Assembly (NCBI GenBank): GCA_900314935.1
Contig: OMXE01000009.1
Location: forward strand, 44,345 to 68,344
Origin: an uncultured Prevotella sp.
GTDB lineage: Bacteria; Bacteroidota; Bacteroidia; Bacteroidales; Bacteroidaceae
Length of the DNA stretch: 24,000 nt
Reading direction: 5' to 3'
The notes beneath the pieces were generated by a model. The model worked only from the letters and a program-made list of their open reading frames with translations. It was not told the DNA's origin and did no database searches. The position numbers and the translations under genes are program-made. Below, piece by piece: positions 9,007 through 23,808 of this stretch. Numbering within the stretch: position 1 is the stretch's first letter; each line of letters begins with the position of its first letter.

Positions 9007-9060
9007 AGCATCAGAATATAAAACCCTCAAAATGTTGGTTTCCGTTCCATGATAACATGA

Positions 9061-9234: not shown

Positions 9235-9283
9235 TGTTATATCTTTGTAAAAAGGCTTATTCCTAATTCATTAGAGATAATAA

Positions 9284-9616: not shown

Positions 9617-9740
9617 GTTTATGTTAAGAATCTTCCTTTATTTGTTTAATTGTAAGTATTCGACTTGATAAATGCTTTTTTCATTAAAATACCATATAGG
9701 ACGATCGTTTATGAAATAAGTCAATTCTGACAAATCCTCT

Positions 9741-10136
9741 TTACTTCCAACAATATTTATTGATTACTTGCTTAAAGATGGGTTCATCAGAGATGGAGGC
9801 AAACAAGAGCATGCAGGTACGCAGTTTCATCACGCCCAGATTGCTGAAGATTTCAAATATCGGTTTGTCTATTTCCAATAGAACCTGTGCCGCCTTGATG
9901 AGTCTTTCTCTCAGGATAGGATGCTCTATGTATGCTTTCGCCTCTTCACGGCCATCAAGACCATAGAAATCGGTCAACTGGCTTGTCCCTTTTCTTTTCA
10001 GTTGAGGATAGACATATCGAATCCAGCATTCGAATCCAAGTTTCCCTTCTTGAATCTCTTTCAATGCCAGTTCATACAAGGTGCAGTCACCTCTTTTACC
10101 ATCCTGTGCTGTTAGAAATCGTTGTAATTCTTCCAT
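9741..10136 (-). CDS. DUF1810 domain protein
   Basis: LQRFLTAQ..., YELALKEIQEGK, W..YVYPQL, EAKAYIEHPILRERL, KLRTCMLLFA and PIFKQVINKYC follow the order and spacing of conserved DUF1810 blocks as I remember them. Confidence 0.75.
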   Translation of the reverse strand: MEELQRFLTAQDGKRGDCTLYELALKEIQEGKLGFECWIRYVYPQLKRKGTSQLTDFYGLDGREEAKAYIEHPILRERLIKAAQVLLEIDKPIFEIFSNLGVMKLRTCMLLFASISDEPIFKQVINKYCWK

Positions 10137-10163
10137 TATTCTGATAAAGTGTTATTTGTAATG

Positions 10164-10171
10164 CAAAACTA
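10164..10171 (-). promoter_or_regulatory. -7 box (TAGTTTTG) upstream of the DUF1810 gene
   Basis: CAAAACTA on the plus strand lies 28 nt upstream of the ATG at 10136. Confidence 0.4.
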
Positions 10172-10247
10172 CGATTGTTTTTTCTAAATACCGCATTATT
10201 CATCAGCCTTTTGTATGAAATACCTGTTCGGACGTACGAAATGAATC

Positions 10248-10358
10248 TCACTTCTTCCCCAACAGGGCTTTTAATTTCACATTCCCGATTTTCCGTTTTA
10301 TCCCCGCCTTGGAGGTGGGGATGCCGGTCTTCTTCGCTATTTCCCGTTTCACTTGCAT
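10248..10358 (-). CDS. 36-aa paralog or truncated copy of the 57-aa small ORF (copy 2)
   Basis: It reads MQVKREIAKKTGIPTSKAGIKRKIGNVKLKALLGKK*. The copy is ~80% identical at nucleotide level to 9061-9175 by hand alignment. Upstream of its ATG the copy-1 reading frame is broken by a TGA, so it is either a short independent peptide or the remnant of a disrupted gene. Confidence 0.35.
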   Translation of the reverse strand: MQVKREIAKKTGIPTSKAGIKRKIGNVKLKALLGKK

Positions 10359-10527
10359 TTTATAGATTCAGCTGTAGATAACTTCGCTAAACGCCCTGCC
10401 ATCAGCTATGGCTCCATAAGAGAGTCTGCTTTTGATATTACAAATTTAGTAAAAGACGATTAACTATGCAAGAACCAGCTTGCTATTTAATGATTATTTA
10501 CATCTTCTTTTATAATCTTTCCAACAA

Positions 10528-10555
10528 GGTCACAAGCCCTGCCTAGCTTGTGACC
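10528..10555 (-). terminator. Hairpin downstream of the 469-aa gene
   Basis: Perfect 10-bp stem GGTCACAAGC / GCTTGTGACC with an 8-nt loop, 19 nt after the stop at 10574. The trailing sequence is only moderately T-rich. Confidence 0.4.
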
Positions 10556-10573
10556 ACGAAACTATCAATCGGG

Positions 10574-11983
10574 TTAGGCAGCCCCCTTTTCCTGATCTAA
10601 ATAGTCTTGATGGCTTTCGATCTTCTTTATGTACGAGTTAAGTTCACGAGCGATATAGGCTTCTCGATTCTTAATCTTTTCATTACGCTCATATTCAGTT
10701 TTTTGTTTTTCAAACTCTTTCTTAAACTCCACGTATTCAGGATATTTCTCCTTAAATGTTTTGTCCGTCAAATTACACAAAGCATAATAGCCTATATCTT
10801 TGTTTGCTTCGTCTGCCTGAATCTCTTTTCTAATTATTGATCGACTCTCATCATATTTATCGTTTCTTTCCTTGTATTCATCCCAAACTGGTTGTAGTTC
10901 TTCCAAGATCTTTGTATATTTCTCAATAATCTCATTCTTATTGTTCAAAGCATCTTGAAGTTGAGGCAGAATACTAATATTAGATTGAATAATACGTTTA
11001 ATATAATCTGACACCTTATCAGTTATGGGAATCAAAGTCTTCAGGCTATCTAAAAAGTCAAGAGCGCCAGAGACTTTTTCTCCTTTGAATAGAATATAAT
11101 CATCACCAGTTAAAAGAGTATACGAACCTGGGCAAAAATTATTGTACTGTATTTTGTATTCTCTCGCAGAATCTGCAATATCTTCAACACCTGAGACCAT
11201 TTCTTCAACTTCATTGATTATAAAATCATTGACAAACGCTTTCGGATTACTTACAGCAGCATTGTAAACCTCTGCCGTAAAAGACATCGTCTTTATCCAT
11301 TCATTGTTTTCAAGTTGATGACATCTTGTGTAACGAATAATATCAAAGGTCGAAGCATTTCGATAGTGAACCCAGTCAGAATATGGTAAAATGCCTATTC
11401 CCTTATAATATATTTGAGTATAGAAATAGCTTGATGAGCCATAACCAAAGTTAGTTCTATACACAACCTTAAGATCTTTGTTCAAATCAAATGAAGGGAA
11501 AGACCAGCCTACCATACGATGGGAATAAGCCACAATCGATTTGTCCCTATTCAATTGATGATATTGTTGTTCCATTAAAAAAGGAACCACATGACTTGCT
11601 ATTTCCTTATAAAACGCTTGCCTAAGACTTCTTTTATAGTTTTTTAATTCTTCCTTATTCCCATCTTTCTCCACTTCACCTACTTTCTCTTGATAATCTG
11701 CCAATGAAATGAATTTGACATCTTGTACGCCTTGGTAAGATCCACTTAAATATGGGCAGAAATCAAAAGGCTCCTTCAATAGTCGCAATGGGGTTGCATT
11801 GACATAGTCCTGTAACTCCAAGACCGATCTGTTATCATTCTCTGCCATCGCATTTAACTTTTTGAGTAAATCCTGATGGGCATACTTAAGTTCGATGAAA
11901 TCCATTTTCACCTTTTTACCATTTTCAATTCTGCGAAGGACACACATGTGCGTCTCGTTCACTTTAACATTAGATACATCCAT
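10574..11983 (-). CDS. Hypothetical 469-aa protein: ~330-aa unknown globular region plus ~130-aa K/E-rich coiled-coil C-terminus
   Basis: A long clean ORF in AT-rich DNA. The C-terminal heptad-like K/E/Q-rich sequence is LQDALNNKNEIIEKYTKILEELQPVWDEYKERNDKYDES...EFKKEFEKQKTEYERNEKIKNRE. I recognise no catalytic motif. Confidence 0.8.
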   Translation of the reverse strand: MDVSNVKVNETHMCVLRRIENGKKVKMDFIELKYAHQDLLKKLNAMAENDNRSVLELQDYVNATPLRLLKEPFDFCPYLSGSYQGVQDVKFISLADYQEKVGEVEKDGNKEELKNYKRSLRQAFYKEIASHVVPFLMEQQYHQLNRDKSIVAYSHRMVGWSFPSFDLNKDLKVVYRTNFGYGSSSYFYTQIYYKGIGILPYSDWVHYRNASTFDIIRYTRCHQLENNEWIKTMSFTAEVYNAAVSNPKAFVNDFIINEVEEMVSGVEDIADSAREYKIQYNNFCPGSYTLLTGDDYILFKGEKVSGALDFLDSLKTLIPITDKVSDYIKRIIQSNISILPQLQDALNNKNEIIEKYTKILEELQPVWDEYKERNDKYDESRSIIRKEIQADEANKDIGYYALCNLTDKTFKEKYPEYVEFKKEFEKQKTEYERNEKIKNREAYIARELNSYIKKIESHQDYLDQEKGAA

Positions 11984-12122
11984 GATAGTTTCTTTTTTTA
12001 TATGTTACACTCTATTATACCATAACCATGGAAAAGGTAAACATCCTGACTGAAAAAAGATTCTTGTTTACTTTCTTATCTTTCATGGTATAAATAAATG
12101 TAATCAAATAAACCTCTTAATT

Positions 12123-12701
12123 ATGGAATCACCTAAAGAAAAAAAGAACAGAAGAGAAAAGACATTCGGACAGCAGGAACGATATTGTTATGTAACCAAA
12201 TCCATCTTCAATGAGAGACTAAGATGCAAAGAGAATGCTTGGTTGCGCAACATTGACATCACAACAGAAGAGCCAAGAACTACCCGTATAGTCCGCCGTA
12301 TCGTTGAAAAGCGTATGTGCCAGACTTACCATAAACAGCACAAAAGAGTTTTTCATGATCATGGTAATCGTAGCCGGCATAACATGAAACGTGCCGTGTC
12401 ATACGAACTCTATATATTAGGACAGGTGGAGAATGTGAACAAACTCAGCAGAGGTAATGCTACCCATTGGAAACGGCAATATGATCCTAATACAGGAAAA
12501 GTGGTATTCAAAAAGAAATTCGGTTATGAGACAATAGAAGAAGCAAAGACTTCTGCTATTAAACTTGTACAGGATAAGCCGTGGTGCCACAAAGCAGTCA
12601 ATGTGTATAAGTGTGCACATTGCAACAAATACCATATTGGTCATGAGAGTAACTTAACCGCCAACCCGATACTAAGTATCTCACCCGTGGCGATAGGCTA
12701 A
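12123..12701 (+). CDS. Hypothetical protein; very basic N-terminal half, C-terminal CxxC..H.GH zinc-ribbon-like motif
   Basis: A 192-aa ORF divergent from the 469-aa gene. The C-terminal region FGYETIEEAKTSAIKLVQDKPWCHKAVNVYKCAHCNKYHIGH looks like a small metal-binding knuckle. The true start may be an internal Met such as MKRAVSYELY, so the 5' boundary is uncertain. Confidence 0.5.
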   Translation: MESPKEKKNRREKTFGQQERYCYVTKSIFNERLRCKENAWLRNIDITTEEPRTTRIVRRIVEKRMCQTYHKQHKRVFHDHGNRSRHNMKRAVSYELYILGQVENVNKLSRGNATHWKRQYDPNTGKVVFKKKFGYETIEEAKTSAIKLVQDKPWCHKAVNVYKCAHCNKYHIGHESNLTANPILSISPVAIG

Positions 12702-12748
12702 TTGCAGTTAAAAAACGTTCAATATGCCAAAATCTCGTTTCTTCTTAC

Positions 12749-12756
12749 TACTTTTG
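12749..12756 (+). promoter_or_regulatory. -7 box (TACTTTTG) for the caspase-sigma operon
   Basis: It matches TAnnTTTG and ends 18 nt upstream of the ATG at 12774. Confidence 0.45.
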
Positions 12757-12773
12757 TAGCAAATTAAATAAAG

Positions 12774-13649
12774 ATGAACAAGTTCATACTCATATTGGCT
12801 TTCGTTGTTGCATTTCCTTTCATTGGCAATGCACAGCGAAAGCGAGCATTTATGATAGGTATATCCAACTATCACACGAATGGGTATAAGGTATGGAGCA
12901 ACATACATGGTGCTGAGGATGTTGCGCTCTTGAAACCGGAACTTGAGAAGAAAGGCTTCAAGGTACAAACCCTTATCAACGAACAGGCAACCTATCAAGG
13001 AATCCTCAATGCACTTAACTCTTTTATTGCCACTTCTAAGAAAGGCGATGTCGTCTATCTTCACTTCTCATGTCATGGCCAGCCTGTAGAAGATGGCCTC
13101 AACGGACTGGCTAAAGATGAAAAAGATGGTTGGGATGAAGCCATTGTTCCAATAGATGCGGGCAAAGAGTATAATTCTACTTACAAAGGCGAGAAGCACC
13201 TTACTGATGACGAGTTAAATGGTTACATCAGTAAACTTCGTAAGAAGATTGGTCTTAAGGGGCTTCTTTATGTGGCAATGGATGCTTGCCATGCTGGTAC
13301 AATGTCACGAAATGGATTTGAAACAGTTAGAGGGACAAATGAAGGATTGACAAAATCAGGCATAAAGTATAATCCCTCAAAGGAAAAAGTAAGGCATTTC
13401 CCCGCCATGACATCTAAAGAAATGTCACCGGTCTTGTTTTTTGAAGCCTGCTTGTCTTATGAACGAAACACCGAAATAAGGGTCAATGGTAAGGAATATG
13501 GTGCATTATCATATAATATATGGCAGGCTATAAAAGACATGGGTAATTTTGATAAGAACACCAAGGATAAGTTCAAAGCCAATCTTGATGCATCCACTAA
13601 AATCAAAGGAAGATGGCCACGAACTCAAACACTTGTAATAGAAGAATAA
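12774..13649 (+). CDS. Caspase-family (peptidase C14) cysteine protease with signal peptide
   Basis: Signal peptide MNKFILILAFVVAFPFIGNAQ. The catalytic His context is VYLHFSCHGQP and the catalytic Cys context is LLYVAMDACHAGTMSR, in the canonical order and spacing for the caspase/metacaspase fold. Confidence 0.9.
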   Translation: MNKFILILAFVVAFPFIGNAQRKRAFMIGISNYHTNGYKVWSNIHGAEDVALLKPELEKKGFKVQTLINEQATYQGILNALNSFIATSKKGDVVYLHFSCHGQPVEDGLNGLAKDEKDGWDEAIVPIDAGKEYNSTYKGEKHLTDDELNGYISKLRKKIGLKGLLYVAMDACHAGTMSRNGFETVRGTNEGLTKSGIKYNPSKEKVRHFPAMTSKEMSPVLFFEACLSYERNTEIRVNGKEYGALSYNIWQAIKDMGNFDKNTKDKFKANLDASTKIKGRWPRTQTLVIEE

Positions 13650-13661
13650 TGCATTTCGCGT

Positions 13662-14237
13662 ATGAATAAGTCAGAAGAAAGAATATTTGAGATATTCATA
13701 AAAAAACATGAACAGAGGACGATGAACTTTCTCTCTACGAGATATTCCATACTATCTGAAGAGAACATCCGGGACATCATTCAAGATTCATACGTTACTC
13801 TGCATAGGAACATTGAAGCAAGGAAAATATCCGAGCCACAGTATCCCTATTTCCTTAAAATTTGTATGAACCTTTCCTTAAAAGCCATCAGCAAACAGGG
13901 TAAGCATATAGTTGTGGGAATCAATGATTCAGATATACAACAGAAAAATACAGTTTCAATGCACAAGGTTGAAAGTATTCTTCAAGTATGCGATGAGCAG
14001 GAGACTGTTGTCAACGAAAAGAAGATGCTTGTTCACAATGCACTTGACAATATGGCGTCAAGGTGTAGGGATTTATTATGGAGTTTCTATGCAGACGAAT
14101 TGAGTTGGGCAACAATAGCTGCCCAATTTGGACTAAAGAATGCAGACACGGCTAAATCACAAGCATCAAGATGTCGTCAGACTTTCAAAGAGAAGTATAA
14201 CCATTTAAGAATGCAGACCTATGGCAATCAAAGATAA
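13662..14237 (+). CDS. Sigma-70 family RNA polymerase sigma factor, ECF-like (regions 2 and 4 only)
   Basis: Region-2-like IRDIIQDSYVTLHRNI and region-4 HTH NALDNMASRCRDLLWSFYADELSWATIAAQFGLKNADTAKSQASRCRQTFKEKY. It starts 12 nt after the caspase stop. Confidence 0.85.
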   Translation: MNKSEERIFEIFIKKHEQRTMNFLSTRYSILSEENIRDIIQDSYVTLHRNIEARKISEPQYPYFLKICMNLSLKAISKQGKHIVVGINDSDIQQKNTVSMHKVESILQVCDEQETVVNEKKMLVHNALDNMASRCRDLLWSFYADELSWATIAAQFGLKNADTAKSQASRCRQTFKEKYNHLRMQTYGNQR

Positions 14238-14880
14238 TAGTGAAAGAATAGAAAGATACCTCCGAGAGCAAATGACACCAGTGGAAAACGAGTCATTTCT
14301 GAATGACCTCAGAAACGACAAGGAACTTCGAGAAGAGGCACAGATGATGGCTCTGCTCGTTAAAGACATGAAAGAAGAACAGGCAAAGCAAGACGAAATC
14401 ATCAAACAGGAAATTCTCACATCTAAGGGGGACTATACATCCAAGACAATTCGACTTACAAAATGGATCAGCTCCATTGCTGCCATGTTTATCCTCCTCT
14501 TTGGTGCTAACCAATGGTACACCTCATACAAGATAGATAAGGTATTTGATGCCTACTATACCCCATATGATGCTTTTATGGCAAGAGGTGGAGATGACGA
14601 AGCCATCAAGCAGGAACTTGCAGAATTATATAATAAGGTAGGAACAGAAAAAGATGTCACTCATGTCATAACCCGTCTGCAAACCATCTATGATGGCATC
14701 CAGTCTGCCAGCGACGACTACGCCGATTACACCTATTACGAGAATGACATTGCCTGGCATTTGGCTTTAGCCTACATCAAAGACCATAACCTTGACAAGG
14801 CAAAAGAATTATTGACACCATTGGCAGATAAAGATAATCCTGAAGCAGAAGAACTACTGAAAGATCTTAATAAACTATAG
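14221..14880 (+). CDS. Putative single-pass anti-sigma factor with TPR-like extracytoplasmic domain
   Basis: It overlaps the sigma gene by 17 nt, suggesting translational coupling. The N-terminus IERYLREQMTPVENESFLNDLRNDKELREE is typical of Bacteroidota anti-sigma N-domains. There is one TM segment (WISSIAAMFILLFGANQWY, about aa 82-98) and a helical C-terminal half ending in a TPR-like AWHLALAYIKDHNLDKAKELL. Confidence 0.65.
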   Translation: MAIKDNSERIERYLREQMTPVENESFLNDLRNDKELREEAQMMALLVKDMKEEQAKQDEIIKQEILTSKGDYTSKTIRLTKWISSIAAMFILLFGANQWYTSYKIDKVFDAYYTPYDAFMARGGDDEAIKQELAELYNKVGTEKDVTHVITRLQTIYDGIQSASDDYADYTYYENDIAWHLALAYIKDHNLDKAKELLTPLADKDNPEAEELLKDLNKL

Positions 14881-14886
14881 AATCCA

Positions 14887-15780
14887 ATGGATGTCACAAT
14901 AAAAACTCCTATCAGATGGCTACTTGGATATATAACAGGTAGATTCGAACAAACGAATGAACATTTTTTTAAACTTAGTGAAGAACTCATTAAAAGTGGA
15001 AAACTAAAACCACGAATTAAACTTGATAATGCGCATGAAGGTTTTTCCTCAGGTGTTGCAAAGATTGATTCTAATGGGGTGATGACATATAACGAATGTT
15101 TTCTTTGCTATCTATGGTGTATGTGTTACTATGGATTGGTTTCTTTTGAAAAAGCAGTTGTTATACATCAACAAAACAAGAGAAATGGGAGAGCCTTCAA
15201 AATAGACAGGGAAGCAATTGCAATCGCAGAAAAGGCACATCAATATGCCATGTCGTTAGTAAGATTCTATTCTGAGTGGCCATCAGAAATACCAACTCCT
15301 CAAGATCATGACAATAATGAAGATGTTAATTTTACTAATCAGCTTTTTCTCTATGCAATTAATTATATCATGTGTCATGAAACCGCCCACGTAATTCTTG
15401 GGCACAAAGATGGTATTTCCGGAGAAGAATCCTACAAACAAGAGTTCGAAGCAGACATGTGGTCATTCGATGCAATACTAACACCTCCCTATAAAGATTC
15501 AAAACTCACTATACAGATGGGAATCCTCATGGGCTTATGCGCAATGATAATGTCATCACCTCAAACAGATGATGGACAGACCCATCCTAGTTCTTTTAAA
15601 CGTCTTAATGTATTCTTAGAAATGATTAATCCAGAACCAAACAGCCAAATTTGGGCTATGGCATGTTTATATATTGGAGTCTGGGATATGGTTTTTTCCA
15701 AAGGATATGATTGGGTTGAGCAATGTGACAATTACAAGGAAATGTATAATTATGTATACAGGCAGATTGTCCTACAATAA
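14887..15780 (+). CDS. HExxH zinc metallopeptidase, ImmA/IrrE (M78)-like or Lit (U49)-like
   Basis: A 297-aa protein starting 6 nt after the anti-sigma stop. The motif is MCHETAHVILGH (His164-Glu165-x-x-His168) followed 13 residues later by EFEADMWSFDAILTP. This matches the HExxH...E.EA(N/D).(F/W)...L.P pattern of ImmA/IrrE-type peptidases. No signal peptide. Hydrophobic stretches (LTIQMGILMGLCAMIMSS, IWAMACLYIGVW) suggest membrane association. Confidence 0.7.
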   Translation: MDVTIKTPIRWLLGYITGRFEQTNEHFFKLSEELIKSGKLKPRIKLDNAHEGFSSGVAKIDSNGVMTYNECFLCYLWCMCYYGLVSFEKAVVIHQQNKRNGRAFKIDREAIAIAEKAHQYAMSLVRFYSEWPSEIPTPQDHDNNEDVNFTNQLFLYAINYIMCHETAHVILGHKDGISGEESYKQEFEADMWSFDAILTPPYKDSKLTIQMGILMGLCAMIMSSPQTDDGQTHPSSFKRLNVFLEMINPEPNSQIWAMACLYIGVWDMVFSKGYDWVEQCDNYKEMYNYVYRQIVLQ

Positions 15781-18700
15781 GTCATTTGAAATACACCAAT
15801 GGTTATTATTTTTGTGAGCGTCTAACAAAATAAATGCAGCCCAATACTTAGGTTCATCATACCTTCCACCATCAACTTCACGAAGGTACTTCTGTGCAGA
15901 CAAAAGTGACTGGCGTTTACTTTGACCAGAAAGCAGATTCTTATAGAACTGAGTCATCAGTATCTGTGTAGCCTTATCATCTACTTCCCAAAGACTCATC
16001 AGGATGGATTTCGCACCCGCTTTTTTGAAGCCACGTTGCAAGCCAAAGACACCTTCGCCTTGTGCAATATCGCCTAACCCCGTTTGGCAAGCTGATAGTA
16101 CGACCAGATCAAGTCCACGCAAATCCACATCGGCAATCTCCTTGGCTGTCAAGATACCATCCTCAACATTATCGGGCAATACCTTGTCTTCCAGTATATG
16201 ATTGGCCCTTGACATTACTAAGCCCGAACGAGTCAAAGCCTTGTCTTCAGCTGAGACCATATTATTGTCTATAAGCATGAATTTGTAACGCGCATTATCA
16301 GCGTCTTCTTTGTTATAATAGAATCCATGAGTTGAGATATGCAGACATCCGACATTCTTTCCAGACAGAGCCTTAAAAGATTCTTCTGTCCCCATCGCTG
16401 CAGTGTCTAACACACATTCCCAATTTGCATTGTTAAGTTCTTTCCCTATTATGTCAACTTCCTCTTTAGTATGTTTGAGGAACTCTTTTCCGCCTCGCAG
16501 CCCCATTCCCTGCACTTTGGGTCGTTCTATAAACGCTTCATCCAGCATTGCAAGGCTCCTATCTGTTACGCTTTTGTCAAACTCCGCGTCATAGTTCAGC
16601 CCACCATATAACACGGCCCGATTCTTTGTCTCTATTTCCCTACTAGTAACCAACTCACGTGTAGATGATAACCGATATATATTATAGTTTTCCATCCCTG
16701 GCAGATACTCAATACCTATATTATAAAGGGCACCTGATGGAGAGAAATAAATATTCTTGATTCCTTCAAGCTCTGCTTGCAATGGTTTCCAAACCAAATC
16801 CGTCATTTCTTTAGATTGATAATGAAGTGAGTCTGGGAATCCAGTTAGTTGCTTTTCCTCAAATAGAGTTATCATCTTCGGGCTTTCTGAACCCTTTCGC
16901 AATAGCAATGCTGTATATACAATACTATCATTGTTTACAGGGAAAGATAAAAACTCTATTGCAACATCTTCTGGGTGGAGATGTTCCTGAATGTCTTTCC
17001 ATTTCAACTTCATACTACAAGTGATGTCACCATATTCCTTGCATTTCACAATGAGTGAATCCTCCAAACTATATATCACATTCTGCAAAGAATCGGCGTT
17101 GAGTTTTCTATATAAGGAATCTTTTTCCAAATTCTTTGCTAAAATATACCTGTCAGCCTTTAGTTCTGCCCATAAATTGTTCAATGTATCATCATTACTC
17201 TCTTCAATTACTCTTTTTACGCTATTCTCAGTAATAAGCAATGCACCTTTCATCATTAAAGACGCATTGTAAGCAGCCTCAATAATTGAATCTGAATGAG
17301 TATAATAAGCATAGGTGGGTATTTGCTGATTCAGTAAGTCAGAATAACCTTCAATATATTTGGAACGTTCATCGTATGTTAATTCTTGAAATGTAAACAA
17401 CAAATCCTCACCCGCTAACTTCATGAATTCAGCTGTGTATTTGATTAATTTGTCGATATCATTTAAGCAGAATGAGTATTGTAAAAGGTATGAAAGAGTT
17501 CTTTGATATAACTTTCTTTGCCGTTGTTTTTTATAAAACTCATCACAGCATAACAAATGATTAATCGCTTGTTTGAAGTTCCTTTTTCCTCCATATGCGA
17601 TTCCCAAGTTCATATTAGAATATGCCATGTTTTCGCTGTTTGGTGAAAAATACTTTTCTTTTAATTCAAGGCTTTTCTTCTCATATACTAATGCACTGTC
17701 ATATTGTTCTTTTTGATTGTAATAAGAGGCCAAATTTGAGAGTTTTGTAGTATAATTTGCATATCCGTTGTAAACATTGCTATATGTTATCGTCGTGGGC
17801 TTAGCCTGTGCCAAGCACTCCTTTTGTATTTCTATTGCTTTATCCGTTTCACCCATGGCGGAATAATATATTGCTATTTGATTCAGGTCATCACTAGTCG
17901 CAAAAGAAGGTCTATCTTGTATAGCACATTGATAACACTTGATAGCAGACTGAAAGTCTCTGATGCTATAATAGCACCATCCCATTTTCAACAAATTGGG
18001 TCCTGAATTATTTATTTCAATGAGTTTTCGGCAAGCCCTAAACGCATCCTTGTACTTTCCTGAGCTATTTAGGACATTTACATAAGAATCTAAAGCTAAG
18101 TTGTAATACCACTTCTCCATAGGACTCTTCAAGAATCTTTTTTCCCAAAAATCTGCGCGGTTTTTCTCAATCTGGATTGCTTTATCCCACATACCCGTCT
18201 TAGTGTAATAATTAGATAAGGTTGAATAATCAGACAATATAGGAAAATCATTTGAGAAATCAATAAGGAATAACTCTCTGATTCCTAAACTTTGTTCCAT
18301 ATATTTTACGGCAGAAAGATAATCCTCTTCTTCATACGAAATTTTGGCTAATTCTCTTAATGCAGACTTCCCCAACCAGTTTTCTTCTGATAATTTAGAT
18401 ATAATATCGTAACTATGCAGAAGATGTTTTTTCGCATCGGCGAAAAGCCTTTTCGAAGTATATGCTAGTCCTAAATCAAACAGAGACAATGCGTAACGAT
18501 GACTATTCCTACCAAGTGCAATAGAATCATATTCGCAAATCTTTTTATACCCTAAAACATCTACATTTTCAGTCCAGACATTTTTTAAAAAATTATACAA
18601 AGAATCAGATCTTTCAGTCAGAGTTCTGTCAAATGGTTCCAACATATAATCCAGATCTATAGTCTCTGCTTTTTCTTTTTGACCACTTTTATAATATGCA

Positions 18701-19434
18701 CATGCTAACCATATTCGAGAATAGTCACTTCTGTCTCTTGATAAAATCGAGTGATGGCAATAAAGTTTATCAAATGCGAAACATTTTTCAAAACACAAAA
18801 TGGCTTCTTGATATGCTTCTTTTTTATATAAATGTACTCCTTGTCTAAAGAGAGAATCAGATAAAGCTATAGAATCTTCTTTTGTTTGTAATGTGCTATT
18901 TGCATATGGAACAGAGTACCTTACTTCTCTCAAATAACGACTATTTAGCGCTGATATGGAATCATAAAACAAAGTGATAGAGTCAATGTGTAGTGTAGGA
19001 GCAAGGCTTATCGAGAAAACAGGTATACTATCCTTCGGAGCAGGAAAGATAATGTTAAAAGTGTCTGTTTGATATGCTTCTGAATGAATAAAAGAAATTG
19101 TAGTTTTAGGGAAAAAAGAATGTTTCTTTTCTCCTGTTTTATAATCTTTAAGAAATAACAAGTGGTTTTCTATGGTGAACGAAGAATTCGGTTTCTTGTT
19201 TTTTATTACCCATTTAGTTTTTAGACTATCGTTCTTATTCTCAATTGTTTTTAAAGAAAGAAAATGAGCATCTGTTTCTATAATTGCATCAACATCAGTA
19301 CCTGTATAGGCATTACCAACAACAATATAAGCACCATCCTGAGCATAGATATAGGATTGTGCATAGCATAACAGCAAGATAAAAATACATCTTACAATAA
19401 CCATTCTAATGCAAATATACAGCTTTATTTTCAT
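15772..19434 (-). CDS. Large secreted TPR-repeat CHAT-domain protein (caspase-fold protease)
   Basis: The track ORF starts at a TTG at 19440. The ATG at 19434 gives [32 protein letters not shown], a signal peptide. The middle ~550 aa are TPR-like repeats with recurring A..Y/W...G....A motifs. The C-terminal CHAT domain has His context [12 protein letters not shown] and Cys context [12 protein letters not shown], then [26 protein letters not shown] and YWAAFILLD. Confidence 0.9.
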   Translation of the reverse strand: [1220 protein letters not shown]

Positions 19435-19540
19435 AATCAATCATTTTTTTAAAAAAAAACATTTCACTGTTTACCTTTTAGCTGAATAGGGTATAATAAG
19501 ACGTAAACAACAAATTAGTAACAATTAAAACAAAAGAAAA

Positions 19541-19966
19541 ATGAAACAGTTAGTTCTTACAATCATCGCCATCATGGCAGTCACAACCAGTTTTGCACAG
19601 TACAATCCGTGGCCAAACTTCTCATCAAAGTCATCATCGGCAAAAGGTCACACAAGCGTATCAAACAATATGCCGACGTTTCCAAGCAACAGTACAACAA
19701 CTGTCAGTGGTTACACTCGCAGCAATGGAACTTATGTTGAACCCCATGTCCGTACCATGCCTAACAATACCAACTTTGATAACTTCTCTACCAAGGGAAA
19801 CTCAAATCCCTTCACCGGATCCACTGGCTATCGTGCCAGAGATTACTCAAGAGATGCTTACAACTATGGAGCTGGTCAAGTCATCCACACAGGTCCTCGC
19901 GGTGGTCAGTATTACAACAATAGCAATGGCCGCAGAACTTATGTACCAAAGCGTAATTTGTGGTAA
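19541..19966 (+). CDS. Small secreted N/S/T/G-rich protein
   Basis: Signal peptide MKQLVLTIIAIMAVTTSFAQ. The segments GYTRSNGTYVEPHVRTMPNNTNFDNFSTKGNSNPFTG and HTGPRGGQYYNNSNGRRTYV resemble short motifs I have seen recurring in small secreted bacterial proteins, recognised from memory only. Confidence 0.7.
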   Translation: MKQLVLTIIAIMAVTTSFAQYNPWPNFSSKSSSAKGHTSVSNNMPTFPSNSTTTVSGYTRSNGTYVEPHVRTMPNNTNFDNFSTKGNSNPFTGSTGYRARDYSRDAYNYGAGQVIHTGPRGGQYYNNSNGRRTYVPKRNLW

Positions 19967-19974
19967 ATAAGGAT

Positions 19975-20005
19975 AGAAATCCCTTGAAAAAAACAAGGGA
20001 TTTCT
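19975..20005 (+). terminator. Hairpin terminator after the 141-aa gene
   Basis: Perfect 12-bp stem AGAAATCCCTTG / CAAGGGATTTCT with an A7 loop, starting 9 nt after the stop. There is no clean U-run (followed by AATTATTAAG). Confidence 0.55.
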
Positions 20006-20048
20006 AATTATTAAGACATCCGAATCAATAATACCATTTCTATATAGT

Positions 20049-20453
20049 ATGACGCAAATGGGAAACCTGACTATTAAGAACAAGAGCGAAGTACTCTACC
20101 TATGTATGAACAGTATTCTGTATATCCAGGCAGACGGAAACTATTGCGACATCTATCTTGCTGATGGTAGCGTGCTCAATACACTCACCTATCAGCGGGC
20201 GGAGATTGCAAAGATGATGGATGAGCAGATTCCAGAGAACATCAGAAAACGGTTTGTTTTAGTCGGAAAGTCGTATATGGTGAATACGGAATATGTACTT
20301 CGCATCCAGCCGAGCAAGCAACTGTTGACATTTATGATCAACCAATTCGGAACAACCCGGAAAGTGACTATAAAAGTAACGACGAAAGCACTCAATAAAC
20401 TGGTGGAGGAAATGGAAATGCAAATGGACGACCATGCTTTTCGTACACCATAA
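20049..20453 (+). CDS. Stand-alone LytTR-domain DNA-binding protein (no receiver domain)
   Basis: ILYIQADGNYCDIYLADGSVLNTLTYQRAEIAKMM...FVLVGKSYMVNTEYVLRI follows the LytTR pattern (I.YIEA.GNY..I......). At 134 aa there is no room for a sensor or receiver domain. Confidence 0.8.
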   Translation: MTQMGNLTIKNKSEVLYLCMNSILYIQADGNYCDIYLADGSVLNTLTYQRAEIAKMMDEQIPENIRKRFVLVGKSYMVNTEYVLRIQPSKQLLTFMINQFGTTRKVTIKVTTKALNKLVEEMEMQMDDHAFRTP

Positions 20454-20622
20454 TCATGCTTTTGTACATTGAAGGATGTCTAGGAGATTTGAAAACGAAA
20501 GATTATGTAGATTTGCAAATTGAATAATAACAAGGAACGGCAGACAACGGTCTGCAAGTCCCACGTCCCATAACAAAACCGCCAATATCCTGGGATTAAT
20601 TGGCACAAACAGAATTTTCGTT

Positions 20623-21267
20623 ATGAAGAAAACAAGAGATTTACAATTGAAGAAGGGCTGGATATTCGCCCTCATGTTTTTAAGCGCTGTAAACATGAAT
20701 GCAAAATCGGAACTGTTCACCATAGTTGAGGGCAGCCTGGACGTTTTGCTCGAACTAAAAAAAACGGCTGTTTTTGAAATTGACTATTCTCAGATGATGG
20801 TCACAAACGGCAAGAACCATGAAGACGATGTTGACTTTGCCACTTGGATGCAGGTTCAGGATGAAGATGATGACAAATGGACGACCGACTGGGAAACTAA
20901 AGACAAGGAGAAATGCCACAAGGCTTTCAGGGAGCATTACAATAACGAAGTGAAACAAGGATTGAAACTATCAAAACTCGGAAAAGACTACAAAGTTGTT
21001 CTCCGGCTTACAATGATTGATTTCGGTCCTGCCGTTAAGTATGGTTTGGGGGGAATAAAAGGTGGTGAGGCTAAGGCCAATGGCATTTTTGAGGTGAGAG
21101 ACCTCAACACTGACGAAGTTAAACTTATCTTGAAATTTGAGGGATTGAAAGGCGAAAGTAGTTTCAAGCAGATAGGACGCTTAATCGGCATCTTTGAGAA
21201 CTTTGGTGAAGAGCTTTCGAACTATCTGAAAGACTACCAGAAAGGACAGAAGAAAAAGAAGAATTGA
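20623..21267 (+). CDS. Secreted hypothetical protein, 214 aa, lysine-rich C-terminal tail
   Basis: Signal peptide WIFALMFLSAVNMNAKS, no recognisable motif, ends in KGQKKKKN. Confidence 0.7.
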   Translation: MKKTRDLQLKKGWIFALMFLSAVNMNAKSELFTIVEGSLDVLLELKKTAVFEIDYSQMMVTNGKNHEDDVDFATWMQVQDEDDDKWTTDWETKDKEKCHKAFREHYNNEVKQGLKLSKLGKDYKVVLRLTMIDFGPAVKYGLGGIKGGEAKANGIFEVRDLNTDEVKLILKFEGLKGESSFKQIGRLIGIFENFGEELSNYLKDYQKGQKKKKN

Positions 21268-21289
21268 CTAATGATTTCCCCCAACTTGC

Positions 21290-21316
21290 AATTGTGTCGC
21301 AACCTGCGACACAATT
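21290..21316. terminator. Hairpin between convergent genes (possible bidirectional terminator)
   Basis: An 11-bp stem AATTGTGTCGC / GCGACACAATT with a 5-nt loop. It lies 23 nt after the 214-aa gene's stop and ~90 nt after the convergent DUF3791 gene's stop. Confidence 0.5.
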
Positions 21317-21405
21317 TGCTTGTCTTTACGCTTATTGAATTGTGGATGTTTCAGTATTCATAGAATAAGGAAATACCTTCGATAGTTCATCATGGCCATG
21401 CATGA

Positions 21406-21627
21406 TTAGACCATTTTCCCAGTCAATAGCTCTCTGCGAAGAAACTCATAATTATAAACTGCGCTTTGGTAATACAAGCCTGTTTCTACATCAAGAATTT
21501 TCTCGTAGAGCTGGGAATTGTAAACAGCATCCATCGCTTCTGGAATGGAGTAACCAAAATCTTCCATTACCTTTATTACCAGATTCTTGGTGAGCGTGTC
21601 TATCAGGTATTTTGTTTCATTATTCAT
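21406..21627 (-). CDS. DUF3791-like small protein (second of a pair)
   Basis: A 73-aa helical protein. Its size and position after a clearer DUF3791 gene fit the paired DUF3791 arrangement seen in Bacteroidales. The motif match itself is weaker. Confidence 0.6.
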   Translation of the reverse strand: MNNETKYLIDTLTKNLVIKVMEDFGYSIPEAMDAVYNSQLYEKILDVETGLYYQSAVYNYEFLRRELLTGKMV

Positions 21628-21667
21628 AGTACTATAGCGACATTAGACCCATGGTAAAGAACAATCA

Positions 21668-21892
21668 TCATATTAAAGCTCCTCCGTTGCGATGACAAAT
21701 AACTGAAAGGTCAGATACGGCATCCTTTATTGATAGTTGATGTTCGGCTTCATAGCATTCATCCAGAAAAGAGATACCCTTAAACCGCTTTAAGTAAGAA
21801 TATGCCTGCTTTATGCTTAACCCGAAATGAGAAGCAAAAGCGCTGACACAATAAACAATGTATGTAACTCTATTCTGAATATCTGTATTCAT
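21668..21892 (-). CDS. DUF3791 domain protein
   Basis: MNTDIQNRVTYIVYCVSAFASHFGLSIKQAYSYLKRFKGISFLDECYEAEHQLSIKDAV matches the DUF3791 pattern (..F.V.CIE.FA......S..E.Y..L.K.G....L...YD.LH). The track start at 21934 adds 14 aa (MCYRRDISHSIHSI), so the start is ambiguous. Confidence 0.7.
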   Translation of the reverse strand: MNTDIQNRVTYIVYCVSAFASHFGLSIKQAYSYLKRFKGISFLDECYEAEHQLSIKDAVSDLSVICHRNGGALI

Positions 21893-21967
21893 AATACTAT
21901 GAATTGAATGAGATATGTCTCGCCTATAGCACATTACCTAAATTAGTGCATTCAACGAGTTCAATGG

Positions 21968-21975
21968 CAAAGATA
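21968..21975 (-). promoter_or_regulatory. -7 box (TATCTTTG) for the DUF3791 pair
   Basis: CAAAGATA on the plus strand lies 34 nt upstream of the ATG at 21934 and 76 nt upstream of the ATG at 21892. Confidence 0.35.
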
Positions 21976-22075
21976 GGGTATTATTTGGAAATATACAAGA
22001 AAAAGGGGCGGAAAATTCAAGGGGAATGAAATGTGCGCGTGTATGAAAAGAATGATTGGTCAATTTTATGCCAAC

Positions 22076-22190
22076 ATATCCCGTAAATCTCTTGAAACGC
22101 CGATGTACAAAGGATTTGAGGGACGGGATATGTTGCTCAAACATATCCCGTAGATCTCCCGTTCATCTAACCTACATCTCCCGTTCAATC
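22076..22190. repeat. Left inverted-repeat arm
   Basis: An ungapped hand alignment to the reverse complement of 22791-22907 gives roughly 80% identity over ~115 bp. It includes a perfect 23-mer, TTGAGGGACGGGATATGTTGCTC (22115-22137 versus 22846-22868). The arm contains 5 copies of the (T)CCCGT / ACGGG(A) core. The inner four are at 11-bp spacing (22147, 22158, a degenerate one at ~22169, and 22180). Confidence 0.8.
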
Positions 22191-22282
22191 AATTTCTCTC
22201 ATAACCAAATTACCACGAATTGTATTTTAGCGGTAATCTCTTGCCTCTTGCTTCTTAAATTCCATCCCTTGTGAAATGAATT

Positions 22283-22319
22283 AAACTATGGCAGTTTGCG
22301 TTAGAAACTATGGCAGTTT
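22283..22319. repeat. Direct repeat AAACTATGGCAGTTT x2, 22-bp period
   Basis: Identical 15-mers at 22283-22297 and 22305-22319. Confidence 0.85.
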
Positions 22320-22347
22320 CTGGTAAAAAGTGCCTCAAACGCCAATT

Positions 22348-22381
22348 GTGGGAACGTCACTCTCTGATAGTGGGAACGTCA
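22348..22381. repeat. Direct repeat GTGGGAACGTCA x2, 22-bp period
   Basis: Identical 12-mers at 22348-22359 and 22370-22381. Confidence 0.85.
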
Positions 22382-22644
22382 TTCACTCATAGCGTCTACG
22401 GCGTTCAGTGTTTTTTAACAGAAAGATGGTGGTTTGTTAACAGATTTTTGCACGCTATGAGGGGTCGATTTTTGGTCGTCTCGGGATTATTTAGTACCTT
22501 TGTACCGAAGAACCAAGATTAGACAGAAGAACTTTTTAGACAAAATAACAAAAGAACGTTTTCGTTAAGCCAGATGAGCAAAGTGAAGCTTGCTTCAACT
22601 TTGCCATGGCGAGAAAAAGTAGGATGAAATCCAACAAATTTATA

Positions 22645-22703
22645 TTTAGACAAAAGAACCAAAGAACCAAATTGTTTTTAGACCAAAGAACTAAAGAACC
22701 AAA
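22645..22703. repeat. Direct repeat TTTAGAC(A/C)AAAGAAC(C/T)AAAGAACCAAA x2, 32-bp period
   Basis: The 27-mers at 22645-22671 and 22677-22703 match at 25/27. Shorter TTAGAC...AGAAC relatives lie at 22519 and 22536. Confidence 0.8.
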
Positions 22704-22707
22704 ATAT

Positions 22708-22777
22708 AATGTTTAATGCTTAATGTTTAACGTTTAATGTTTAACGTTTAATGTTTAACGTTTAATCTTTAATGTAT
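22708..22777. repeat. AT-rich 14-bp tandem repeat AATGTTTAACGTTT, ~5 units
   Basis: The units start at 22708 (AATGTTTAATGCTT), at 22722, 22736 and 22750 (all three exact), and at 22764 (degenerate AATCTTTAATGTAT). There is an underlying 7-bp sub-period TTAAYGT. Confidence 0.9.
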
Positions 22778-22790
22778 AAATGTTTTTGTT

Positions 22791-22907
22791 GGAGATCTAC
22801 GGGATATGTACGGGAAATCTACGGGAGATCTACGGGAAATGTTAGAGCAACATATCCCGTCCCTCAAAACCTCTGAGCAAAGGCGTTTCAAGATGTTTAC
22901 GGGATAT
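22791..22907. repeat. Right inverted-repeat arm
   Basis: It contains four contiguous 11-bp units TACGGGA(T/A/G)AT(G/C)(T/-) starting at 22798, 22809, 22820 and 22831, plus two more core copies at 22856 and 22899. It ends 14 nt from the DUF3667 stop codon. Confidence 0.8.
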
Positions 22908-22920
22908 CTGCAGTATATTT

Positions 22921-23808
22921 CTATCGTGCAGCGCTAATGAAGCTGAAAAGGAAAAAGGCAATAAGGATTCCCAGGTAAACCGCAATGAAGATGCCGAGAG
23001 CGAGGATTGCCCTCCAGATGGTTTGCCAATAGCTATAGCCCGAAAGTTGCTTCAGGGGGATAATGGTCAGCAGCGGGAAAACCGATTCATAATAGTAGTT
23101 CATACAGAAGAATGAGGCAACGATGGAATAGAGGTACCACATGTCTGTGAAATAGATCATCGAGACGAAAAACTCCGAAAACCTCATATCTGGTATGTTG
23201 GGACAATGACGGAAGAAAAGGTAGAGTGGACCACACAGGAGCAGTACGACAATAAGTAACACAATGGATAGGTGCTTGTTTATCCACACGTTCGCTTTCT
23301 TGGCTTTTCCCAGAAAGTCGGCAGTTGCCTGTTTCTCTATCTCATCACCTTGTTGGTCGTTTTCTAAACCATTGTTTTCCATCTCCATCTTGTCGTATAA
23401 CTCCATGCTCTCCTCGAGGCGGTTGACCCTTCGGATATTAAAGCCGGATTCTACTAATAGTGACAAAGCGATGAGCAGGAAAAACAACTTAAACGGTGGA
23501 AAGTAGGCCATCATCATACCCTTCAAATAGTCGTATGCCATATAGCCTGGTCGGACAATCAGGTCACGAAGGGTGCGGAACATTCCTCTGTTGCCTAAGC
23601 CCCATACGTCGAGGAACAACAAGAAGGCGTTTTTGAAGGAGTATCTGCCGAGCTTAGACGACTGTCCGCAGCGAGGACAGTAGTTACCTTGGAAATGTGT
23701 CTCGCAGGTAGTGCAAACATGTTCCTTTGCTGATAATGGCTTTACCTGATACGGTTGCTTTTGCCACGTACTGAATTGTCTGTATTTCTCCTTTATTCTT
23801 TCAAACAT
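22921..23808 (-). CDS. DUF3667-like membrane protein with N-terminal zinc ribbon
   Basis: CTTCETHFQGNYCPRCGQ (a CxxC...CxxC ribbon) is followed by LRDLIVRPGYMAYDYLKGMMMAYFPPFKLFFLL and several TM helices. This architecture matches the Bacteroidota DUF3667 family as I remember it. Confidence 0.8.
   Translation of the reverse strand: MFERIKEKYRQFSTWQKQPYQVKPLSAKEHVCTTCETHFQGNYCPRCGQSSKLGRYSFKNAFLLFLDVWGLGNRGMFRTLRDLIVRPGYMAYDYLKGMMMAYFPPFKLFFLLIALSLLVESGFNIRRVNRLEESMELYDKMEMENNGLENDQQGDEIEKQATADFLGKAKKANVWINKHLSIVLLIVVLLLCGPLYLFFRHCPNIPDMRFSEFFVSMIYFTDMWYLYSIVASFFCMNYYYESVFPLLTIIPLKQLSGYSYWQTIWRAILALGIFIAVYLGILIAFFLFSFISAAR

Follow-up and report, generated by a model that had tools for sequence, protein, structure and literature searches.

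A short, gene-less member of a repeated Prevotella element family whose arms resemble binding-site arrays of a Rep-type helicase

What is a non-coding segment of 832 bp doing between two long inverted repeats, at the point where a genomic island of ~13 kb (9033-22072, between an esterase gene at 8155-9006 and the outer end of the segment's left arm) meets core DNA in an uncultured Prevotella sp.? We took up this question in the 24,000-nucleotide stretch of DNA analyzed here, which we call the window. The two arms had been read from the letters alone as about 80% reverse complementary with a perfect 23-mer, and an inverted-repeat search bears this out, pairing 22076-22184 with 22799-22907 (109 nt, 84% complementary, 614 nt between them); counted in register, 92 of 109 positions are identical, and the longest perfect run is 24 nt. 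The best 100-nt ungapped inverted window has 84 matches, versus 50.0 ± 2.2 (max 60) in 200 dinucleotide-preserving shuffles of 21935-22920, a repeat far above shuffled expectation, and the inverted-repeat element is thus confirmed as real.

Both arms are ordered arrays of one 11-12-nt unit, TACGGGAnATnT. With at most one mismatch allowed, this unit occurs 12 times in the window, where ~1.1 matches are expected over the whole length, and 11 of the 12 lie within the two arms. The units recur with a period of 11 bp, on the minus strand in the left arm and on the plus strand in the right, and each arm has the same order from inside to outside: four tandem units, an inverted unit that creates a 12-5-12 palindrome, a conserved spacer of ~36 bp, and an outer unit.

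22061-22190, minus strand: left arm, whose units run along the minus strand
22074-22085: left-arm outer unit
22086-22121: left-arm conserved spacer
22123-22151: left-arm palindrome (22123-22134 and 22140-22151, 12 nt each, 5 nt apart)
22141-22185: left-arm tandem 11-bp units (22163-22173 is of the GGTTAGATG type)
22791-22909, plus strand: right arm
22798-22842: right-arm tandem 11-bp units, four in number
22832-22860: right-arm palindrome, counterpart of that in the left arm
22861-22897: right-arm conserved spacer
22898-22909: right-arm outer unit

The palindromes agree with the sequence-only reading, which had noticed one at about 22121-22151. Its distance of 14 nt from the right arm to the DUF3667 stop needs a small correction, the stop codon lying at 22921-22923 and the arm ending at 22907-22909, a gap of 11-13 nt. 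About 15 nt outside the left-arm outer unit, GTTGGCATAAAATTG (reading outward) is like the ends of other copies of the element.

The window copy, ~832-850 bp in length, is non-coding, as had been supposed: it has no Pfam match and no ORF conserved between copies, and the frame of its 70-aa ORF (22310-22522, no Pfam match) differs from that of the ORF over the homologous stretch of another copy, L058. Between the arms we distinguish the following parts.

22191-22282: variable linker from left arm to control region, differing among copies and strains by alignment and blastn
22283-22470, plus strand: conserved control region upstream of the promoter, with direct-repeat pairs 22 bp apart
22283-22326: control-region repeat pair, AAACTATGGCAGTTT twice
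22345-22388: control-region repeat pair, GTGGGAACGTCA twice
22410-22444: control-region repeat pair, GTTTTTTAACAGA and GTTTGTTAACAGA
22471-22502, plus strand: match to the Bacteroidota-type promoter, TTTG-N20-TAccTTTG, pointing at the right arm
22557-22634, plus strand: 78-nt secondary insertion, a structured mini-sequence outside the family design
22620-22790: AT-rich stretch (GC 22-27%) composed of AGAACCAAAG-type repeats plus TAATGTT in 11 copies

The control region is 80-92% identical to more than 20 other copies, and in longer copies the same block lies upstream of a VapE-like gene, which the aligned promoter directly precedes. The promoter pattern has 5 matches in the window versus 0.77 expected, two of the others being just upstream of the NUDIX and DUF3667 starts. 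The AT-rich stretch adjoins the inner end of the right arm, in the position of the VapE-like gene, and other short copies have filler of a like kind. When the whole intergenic region was compared by BLAST with phage and plasmid sequences, the 78-nt insertion was the sole match; it also occurs on Bacteroidales plasmids, within a transposase gene of the IS1380 family, and is absent from the allele L004. The idea that this insertion is a transposase relic, as in a classical MITE, was rejected, as it is an independent mini-insertion that also sits within the IS1380 gene. No Rfam family reached the gathering score in the window, relaxed matches in 21900-22950 being noise, and the window contains no tRNAs.

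The segment had been placed at the junction of island and core, and it does adjoin that junction, but it lies on the core side and is no feature of the island. Window position 9032 is joined directly to 22073 in the island-free loci L003, L006, and L060, and L004 has a different island at the same insertion point. Because the same pair of converging core genes encloses the element in island-free strains, the element is independent of the island; the 832-bp segment and the island next to it are separate, and the outer end of the left arm is the exact point at which islands, at least two different ones, have inserted. The locus is filled in 10 of 10 assemblies (L003-L007, L060, L095, L097, L103, and the window), and strains are mosaic, with breakpoints within the element (identities of 96-97% in the right arm, 83-91% in the interior, and 76-82% in the left arm). 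A single-copy sequence conserved in place had been named as a finding that would speak against a mobile or replicative origin, and the element is indeed fixed in place in the species; this is no refutation, because there are several copies per genome and relatives that carry a gene.

These relatives show, by their shared sequence and order of parts, that the window segment is a short, gene-less member of a small repeated Prevotella element family, apparently undescribed so far. A pattern of three tandem units (22 specified bases) is found at 69 loci in GTDB genomes, where our own estimate of the number expected by chance is ~0.07. Four loci were matched in Prevotella sp. Tb.RUG.501, among them L060, the window's own locus, and L047, L058, L060, and L067 are unrelated sites in one MAG that shares this locus. 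The palindrome pattern recovered 27 metagenome loci, chiefly from rumen-type samples, every complete one of which has the two-arm design and the conserved control region, and more than 40 arms from other loci have their parts in the same order as the window arms. Family elements are 0.5-2.3 kb long with at most two genes. The full form, found in long copies of 1.6-2.3 kb, consists of left arm, promoter-bearing control region, VapE-like gene, and right arm; arms of ~100-112 bp surround one ORF in L058, L081, L083, L093, L011, L110, L114, L124, and L125, and two long copies also have DUF6078. There were no circular contigs, the short VapE contigs L124 and L125 having chromosomal flanks and no terminal overlap. 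Viral contigs gave 0 matches to the palindrome pattern and 2 to the tandem pattern, both unrelated, and the family is therefore not evidently phage-borne.

The VapE-like ORF of the long copies encodes 400-403 aa (typically 401) and stops 0-22 bp before the right arm. Its product matches the Pfam VapE-like_dom (1e-31), also DUF5906 and DUF3874, and a PHROG DNA helicase (1e-40), and the sole match by sequence in the PDB is SaPI1 Rep1 (7PDS_A, E = 7e-11), which shows homology to the SaPI Rep helicase-initiators. In an AF2 model of low overall quality (mean pLDDT 55), residues 330-400 form a locally confident beta-alpha-alpha-beta-beta C-terminal domain (pLDDT 77-91) that appears winged-helix-like; a fold search with this model ranked 7PDS chains and winged-helix proteins at the top, the best E value (0.028, 7PDS) not being significant. 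PADLOC assigned the protein to no known defense model. SaPI Reps both recognize and unwind a replication origin. They are self-loading helicase-initiators in which a C-terminal winged helix contacts iterons that directly follow rep and run in opposite directions on either side of an AT-rich region (PMC9371898). VapE-like genes of Prevotella and Segatella, present in several variants, have been mentioned only in passing (PMC10635906, PMC4349605).

Which protein might recognize the arms is suggested by three closely related long copies, L058, L081, and L125. Between residues 1 and 325 their proteins share 97-99% identity, which drops to 75-80% over residues 326-401, and the units at both ends of each element differ as well: ACGGGAAATCT in L058, ACGGG(G/A)TATGT in L081, and GGGTTAGATGT in L125. 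The 1.5 kb between the arms is 90-98% identical among the three, so that the last ~40 helicase residues and the units of both arms vary jointly in elements whose remainder is 90-99% identical. More distant proteins go with other units (ACGGGAGTAGTT in L110, GGGTTAGGTGTT in L114, and GACGGGAGGTT in L011). That the arm units vary with the helicase tail points to the helicase as their binder. The joint change could stem in part from linked inheritance of the 3' end of the gene and the adjacent right arm, but the distant left arm changes too.

We therefore favor, with a probability of roughly 0.6, the reading that the window element is an orphan array of Rep-binding sites that resembles a replication origin and is served in trans. 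The VapE-like helicase would bind the 11-bp arm units through its putative winged-helix-like C-terminal domain, and binding at the arms would start DNA replication; two arrays facing each other across a promoter and an AT-rich stretch would follow the logic of a SaPI origin. The window copy has kept the arms, control region, and promoter and has lost the gene, so that any helicase serving it would have to come in trans from a full copy at another genomic site. A full copy of the window's unit type is present in the closest reference genome (L058), the trans partner being inferred from a reference MAG with flanks ~96.5% identical to the window. The earlier suggestion of a relic replication region of an integrated element survives in part, since the array does resemble the origin of a Rep-type helicase, but the element is independent of the adjacent island.

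The spacing of the arms speaks against an origin, as they lie 600-2000 bp apart and enclose the gene, whereas SaPI origins are compact and wholly downstream of rep. The arrays may also be silent or serve another purpose, because several firing origins per chromosome would do harm. Very similar TACGGGATAT arrays in other Bacteroidota have no VapE-like gene within 8 kb, so the unit is not exclusive to this helicase. We can offer only as a tentative idea, which we would sooner doubt than defend, that the family represents a class of minimal selfish DNA in Prevotella, not described before, in which a lone Rep-type helicase gene, with no recombinase of its own, lies within mirror-image arrays of its own binding sites and is propagated or maintained by replication from its ends, gene-less copies then being chromosomal origins activated in trans. 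If this were true, such origins could over-replicate neighboring islands or mark sites of island exchange. The chromosomal origin or terminus itself was also considered, on account of a GC-skew minimum close to the element and the change in gene orientation there, and was dropped because there are several copies per genome, no DnaA-box cluster, and a helicase-encoding parent.

An unlikely alternative is that the segment is a true transposable element (a MITE), whose arms would work like Tn7 or Mu ends or lambda arm sites, as multi-site ends for a transposase or a site-specific recombinase from another locus; the 12-5-12 palindrome would then be a lox/dif-like crossover site and the VapE-like gene cargo or an accessory replication function. 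The sequence-only reading had listed such an element first, and it was right that this is a gene-less member of a repeated family with binding-site-like arrays, but the relatives encode a VapE/SaPI-Rep-like helicase-initiator and no transposase. Several copies per genome at unrelated loci would suit this alternative, as would the tight fit of copies between genes, ends that are sharply conserved as far as ...TTTACGGGAAATGTTG, a palindrome with the geometry of tyrosine-recombinase core sites, and the shared filler of the short form, which would therefore have spread as such. Moreover, tyrosine integrase genes are found 200-320 bp away from similar arrays in other Bacteroidota; a 265-aa ORF beside the non-Prevotella arrays has no Pfam or PDB match. 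What weighs against movement by a transposase is that neither transposase nor recombinase genes occur in ~15 long copies or in the 24-kb window, nor an integrase in the flanks of the elements. As had been noted for the window copy, there is no target-site duplication, and none is consistent in the flanks of ~25 distinct ends, which share only an A or T run, in either orientation, located 6-9 nt outside the outer unit. DUF3667 and esterase homologs (68-86% identity) yielded no empty site, their neighborhoods not being syntenic with the window locus. Paralogous copies differ by 10-25% and sister species hold copies at the same loci, and there is therefore no sign of recent movement. The covariation of arm units with the helicase tail likewise favors the helicase.

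It is rather improbable that the element is instead a domesticated chromosomal landmark, either a homology anchor or insertion hotspot for island swapping or a local amplification origin through which induction of the helicase would increase the dosage of neighboring defense genes. Islands and single-gene cassettes do lie directly outside the arms, including AAA-ATPase cassettes ~15 bp outside them in L038 and L073 that are absent in L058 and L013. The different islands at the window's left arm, the strain breakpoints inside the element, its retention in all 10 locus assemblies, and an island that holds a Lit-like protease and caspase/CHAT proteins would also fit a landmark. However, mobile DNA is expected to cluster in tolerant intergenic gaps without any function, the orientation of the cassettes relative to the arms is not fixed, there is no sign of amplification, and the element is seemingly absent downstream of an 86%-identical DUF3667 relative.

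Finally, we give almost no credence to an inverton, in which recombinase action would turn the interior around and point the promoter either into the 3' end of DUF3667 or into island genes: a good promoter match does lie between inverted repeats, the arm palindromes are mutually inverted, and the flipped promoter would face DUF3791 and minus-strand genes of the island, but the interior has one orientation relative to its flanks in 10 of 10 independent locus assemblies and in all orthologous pairs at other loci, the window has no recombinase, and the parent form uses the promoter simply to drive the VapE-like gene. The earlier judgment that inversion is less likely thus holds. Concerted evolution of the two arms, sought as a sign of inversion, was not found either; an arm does not have its nearest relative in the other arm of its own element, and the two therefore do not exchange sequence.

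Thousands of VapE-like genes are annotated as "virulence-associated" in Prevotella and Segatella genomes. Our analysis assigns them a defined genetic unit, made up of arms, control region, gene, and gene-less derivatives, and supplies a partner DNA site that can be tested and that varies naturally in specificity. Were the arrays working origins, Prevotella chromosomes would have several extra helicase-dependent initiation sites beside variable defense islands, which would bear on the amplification, exchange, or mobilization of islands in a genus prominent in gut and rumen. Even with silent arrays, the family remains useful for marking the points where islands insert, and it is a source of assembly breaks.

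The element shares features with several known systems. Like Bacteroidales invertons, it has inverted repeats around a Bacteroidota-type promoter and belongs to a repeated family with shared repeat sequences, but its repeats are several times longer, no orientation variants were found, and no recombinase lies nearby. The ends of Tn7 and Mu are likewise ~100 bp long and contain several copies of one protein-binding unit, direct and inverted; here, however, there is neither a transposase nor a target-site duplication, and the two ends are near mirror images, whereas those of Tn7 are asymmetric. In the parC centromere of plasmid R1, a promoter lies between two blocks that together comprise ten 11-bp repeats. 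With this centromere and with iteron plasmid origins the element has in common tandem repeats one helical turn apart beside an AT-rich stretch and two blocks that flank a promoter, but the blocks are inverted rather than direct, each adds a palindrome, a conserved spacer, and an outer unit, and the associated protein is a helicase instead of a RepA-type initiator or ParR.

The resemblance to MITEs lies in its size of less than 1 kb, its non-coding, AT-rich interior, its terminal inverted repeats, its intergenic position, its repetition in the genome, and its derivation from a longer relative that has a gene between ends of the same kind. In contrast to the 10-40-bp ends of MITEs, its ends are ordered binding-site-like arrays of ~110 bp, with no target-site duplication and no insertion polymorphism seen (all 10 assemblies of the locus contain the element), and the longer relative encodes a helicase-initiator and no transposase.

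From the replication module of SaPIs and related PICIs (PMC9371898), the family differs in its 11-bp units and in its two arrays of ~110 bp, which, separated by 0.5-2 kb, surround the gene in the manner of terminal inverted repeats. It also has no integrase, primase, repressor, or packaging genes, is present in several copies per chromosome, some of them gene-less, and resides in Bacteroidota rather than Firmicutes, its replication being putative. What the two have in common is a VapE-type helicase, carried by the long copies (7PDS, E = 7e-11) and not by the window copy, short repeats directly after the helicase stop codon (0-22 bp in long copies), repeats that point in opposite directions around an AT-rich stretch, although far more widely spaced here, and a C-terminal domain that varies along with the repeat sequence.

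The element is real and non-random. Within the intergenic stretch bordered by the DUF3791 and DUF3667 genes, a repeat search found two inverted arms of 109 nt each, 84% complementary and 614 nt apart, which match in register at 92 of 109 positions, 24 of them consecutive. Over 100 nt, the highest-scoring inverted window has 84 matches, against 50 ± 2 (maximum 60) when the region was put through 200 dinucleotide-preserving shuffles, confirming the arms that a sequence-only reading had described. The local palindrome that it had seen, of 12-5-12 geometry, is also present and has a twin in the other arm.

21668-21934, minus strand: DUF3791 gene, left border of the stretch holding both arms
22076-22184: left arm
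22123-22151: palindrome of the left arm
22283-22502: repeat pairs spaced by 22 bp with a TTTG-N20-TAnnTTTG promoter, a conserved block directly upstream of the VapE-like gene in long copies
22799-22907: right arm
22832-22860: twin palindrome of the right arm
22921-23808, minus strand: DUF3667 gene, right border of the stretch

Both arms have an 11-bp period (Tandem Repeats Finder), and the unit pattern TACGGGAnATnT, with at most one mismatch allowed, matches 12 times in the 24-kb window versus about 1.1 expected, 11 of the 12 lying inside the arms. From the inside outward, an arm consists of four tandem units, an inverted unit, a spacer of about 36 bp, and one outer unit, the left arm being the mirror image of the right; the palindrome is formed by the last tandem unit and the single inverted unit. 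One left-arm unit (22163-22173) is of a divergent type, GGTTAGATG. The spacer (22086-22121 and 22861-22897; consensus CTCAAACCCTTTGTACATCGGTGTTTCAAGAG) stays alike across copies with differing units and could be bound by another, conserved factor; the L124 spacer (2250-2285) reads as a clean palindrome, CCTCAAACCC...GGGTTTGAGG.

A search for copies in the same and related genomes, as proposed from the sequence alone, showed that the element belongs to a repeated family. With three tandem units as the query pattern (22 specified bases), 69 loci matched in GTDB contigs, taken as one genome per species; by our own estimate, chance alone would give about 0.07. Ten of these, in rumen Prevotella and Bacteroidaceae MAGs, show the same two-arm design, with interiors 75 to 90% identical to window 22283-22520, and the palindrome pattern added 27 metagenome loci, all complete ones having this design. 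Prevotella sp. Tb.RUG.501 carries four family loci in one genome, one of which (L060; flanks ~96.5% identical to the window) corresponds to the locus of the window but is free of the island. Copies agree at their ends as far as ...TTTACGGGAAATGTTG; past this point there is only a run of A or T 6 to 9 nt further out, and the flanks show no consistent duplication. Within an element, neither arm has the other as its closest relative, so the two do not exchange sequence.

Many Bacteroidota outside Prevotella, among them Niastella soli, Ferruginibacter, Flavisolibacter, and a Roseivirgaceae MAG, contain several tandem 11-bp arrays of TACGGGATAT with 3 to 7 units each (drawn from L008-L076, e.g., L035 1829-1881, L010, L016, L021, and L049). 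Their palindrome geometry differs from that of the Prevotella family, some sit between a tyrosine integrase gene and an ORF of ~265 aa, and no VapE-like gene was found within 8 kb of them.

Long copies of the family carry a gene between the arms. In L058, a locus in the closest reference genome, arms at 2773-2870 and 4490-4587 surround a 401-aa ORF whose end lies 11 bp short of the right arm, and this arrangement recurs in at least three flanking contexts (L058/L083/L013/L073, L081, and L093). The protein matches Pfam VapE-like_dom (1e-31), DUF5906, DUF3874, and phage helicase/primase PHROGs and no defence model; of the solved structures, only 7PDS, from the SaPI1 Rep1 helicase, matches it in sequence (E = 7e-11). 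More than 6,600 homologues are present in the protein collection, nearly all of ~401 aa and mostly from Prevotella. Judged by these matches, the gene encodes a Rep-type helicase. In its AF2 model the ATPase core is poorly predicted and residues 330-400, a beta-alpha-alpha-beta-beta domain, are modelled with confidence; a fold search placed 7PDS chains and winged-helix proteins on top, without significance. Gene-carrying relatives, which the sequence-only reading had proposed to look for, are seen in the long copies; these encode a helicase and no transposase. In some long copies a further small gene, DUF6078 (~152 aa; L110 2781-3239, L124 242-709), separates the left arm from the VapE-like gene.

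SaPI Reps are self-loading helicases doubling as initiators, whose C-terminal winged helix recognises iterons directly downstream of rep, oppositely directed on either side of an AT-rich region, according to the paper on the 7PDS structure (PMC9371898). The strongest evidence that the C-terminal domain of the Prevotella helicase would likewise read the arms is a joint change of protein tail and arm unit. The L058, L081, and L125 proteins are 97 to 99% identical over residues 1-325 and only 75 to 80% over residues 326-401, and their units are ACGGGAAATCT, ACGGG(G/A)TATGT, and GGGTTAGATGT, respectively. L125 carries its new unit in both arms, yet the intervening 1.5 kb is 90 to 98% identical to L058; linkage between the 3' end of the gene and its neighbouring arm does not by itself account for the change in the far arm. 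Helicases at a greater distance (78% and 71% identical) likewise lie between inverted arms of ~100 bp that follow this grammar and have a similar spacer, but the units differ (ACGGGAGTAGTT in L110 and GGGTTAGGTGTT in L114); L011 has GACGGGAGGTT.

The window copy has no such gene, and, in line with the earlier remark that its interior has no credible ORF, none there has a Pfam match or is kept in frame among other copies. It retains the control region (five promoter-pattern matches in the window versus 0.77 expected), and simple AT-rich repeats (GC 22 to 27%) fill the gene's position. This type of filler is common to other short copies, which indicates that the short form spread as such, not via separate deletions. 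Most alleles of the window locus, L004 excepted, also hold a 78-nt insert (22557-22634, also at L001 5009-5086; GTTTTCGTTAAGCC...GAAATCCAAC) that looks like a tiny structured insertion sequence: a counterpart 82.7% identical lies inside an IS1380-family transposase gene on ~26 Bacteroidales plasmids, where, measured against the family profile, it contributes ~23 extra residues and brings in an in-frame stop, and the predicted fold, a long and a small hairpin, has five compensatory pairs between just two variants, with no Rfam match.

Our results lead us to propose that the arms are most likely arrays of Rep-binding sites, oppositely oriented on the two sides of a promoter and an AT-rich stretch, a layout resembling a replication origin, where the helicase would bind and might start replication. 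The window copy, having no gene, could be served only in trans, by a full copy whose units match its own; such units are present in L058. Against origin function, the arms are widely spaced, several origins per chromosome would be risky, and there is no sign of recent movement, as paralogous copies diverge by 10 to 25% and loci are common to sister species. A classical transposon, its arms served by a transposase or tyrosine recombinase, is a less likely reading, suggested by the lox/dif-like geometry of the palindromes and the similar arrays adjoining integrases in other Bacteroidota, but no transposase, duplication, or empty site was found.

Neighbourhoods gathered by exact look-up of the DUF3667 protein in public assemblies were of five kinds and place the element in the core, not the island. 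L003 and L006 are free of an island, and there the DUF3667 and esterase genes converge on a gap that is taken up by a 565-bp version of the element; the window's 13-kb island (~9033-22072) is inserted exactly at the left arm's outer end; L005 and L007 match the window, and L004 has a different island at the same point. The island lacks a recombinase, has a GC of ~32 to 42% (core, ~48 to 52%), and is defence-like in content; no recombinase or transposase is encoded in the 24-kb window.

8155-9006: esterase gene, converging with the DUF3667 gene in island-free loci
12774-13649: caspase-like protein (island)
14887-15780: Lit-like peptidase U49 (island; PADLOC Lit, 3e-29)
15772-19440: 1222-aa TPR-CHAT protein (island)
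Further island genes: sigma-70-like, LytTR, DUF1810, and DUF3791 proteins

The suggestion of a relic replication region of an integrated element captures part of this, the origin-like layout of the arms, but the element is not a relic of the adjacent island. Identity between strains is mosaic (right arm, 96 to 97%; interior, 83 to 91%; left arm, 76 to 82%), which suggests that island exchanges had breakpoints within the element. Recurrent cassettes directly outside the arms would fit a landmark that benefits the host by aiding island exchange or local amplification, a reading we consider improbable. Inversion of the interior, also raised earlier, is not supported, as orientation relative to the flanks is identical in all 10 assemblies of the window locus (L003-L007, L060, L095, L097, L103, and the window) and constant in every orthologous pair at other loci.

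Several other sequences adjoin the arms. An 85-nt promoter-bearing segment directly outside the left arm (21947-22033) reads into DUF3791; different islands here share it, driving different first genes (L004 7440-7677), and it occurs twice in several other loci (L084, L094, and L098). Diverged single-gene AAA-ATPase cassettes (~390 aa; L038 4270-5598 and L073 802-2080), each with its own promoter and REP-like 3' end, are inserted ~15 bp outside the left and the right arm of a single element in one MAG; its relatives (L058 and L013) lack them. A REP-like palindromic repeat of ~63 nt, GACCACGGATTGAACAGATTAAACGGATAATTATCAAATCCGCAATCCGTGTGATCCGTGGTC, recurs in Prevotella intergenic regions adjoining elements (L038 ~4207-4270, L058 2689-2755, L073 807-869 and 2208-2252, and L013 690-734).

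In full-text searches, multiple VapE genes in Prevotella and Segatella surfaced only as passing mentions, and no account of the unit itself was found. The MITE-like reading captured the multiple binding sites, but two features that define a MITE are missing: a partner encoding a transposase, and duplication of the target site. Of known systems, the SaPI Rep-origin module comes closest; it shares the helicase family, repeats placed after the gene, their opposite orientation, and variant-specific repeats. In contrast to that module, the Prevotella family has mirror-image arms around a lone gene, gene-less derivatives, no integrase or packaging genes, and several chromosomal copies.
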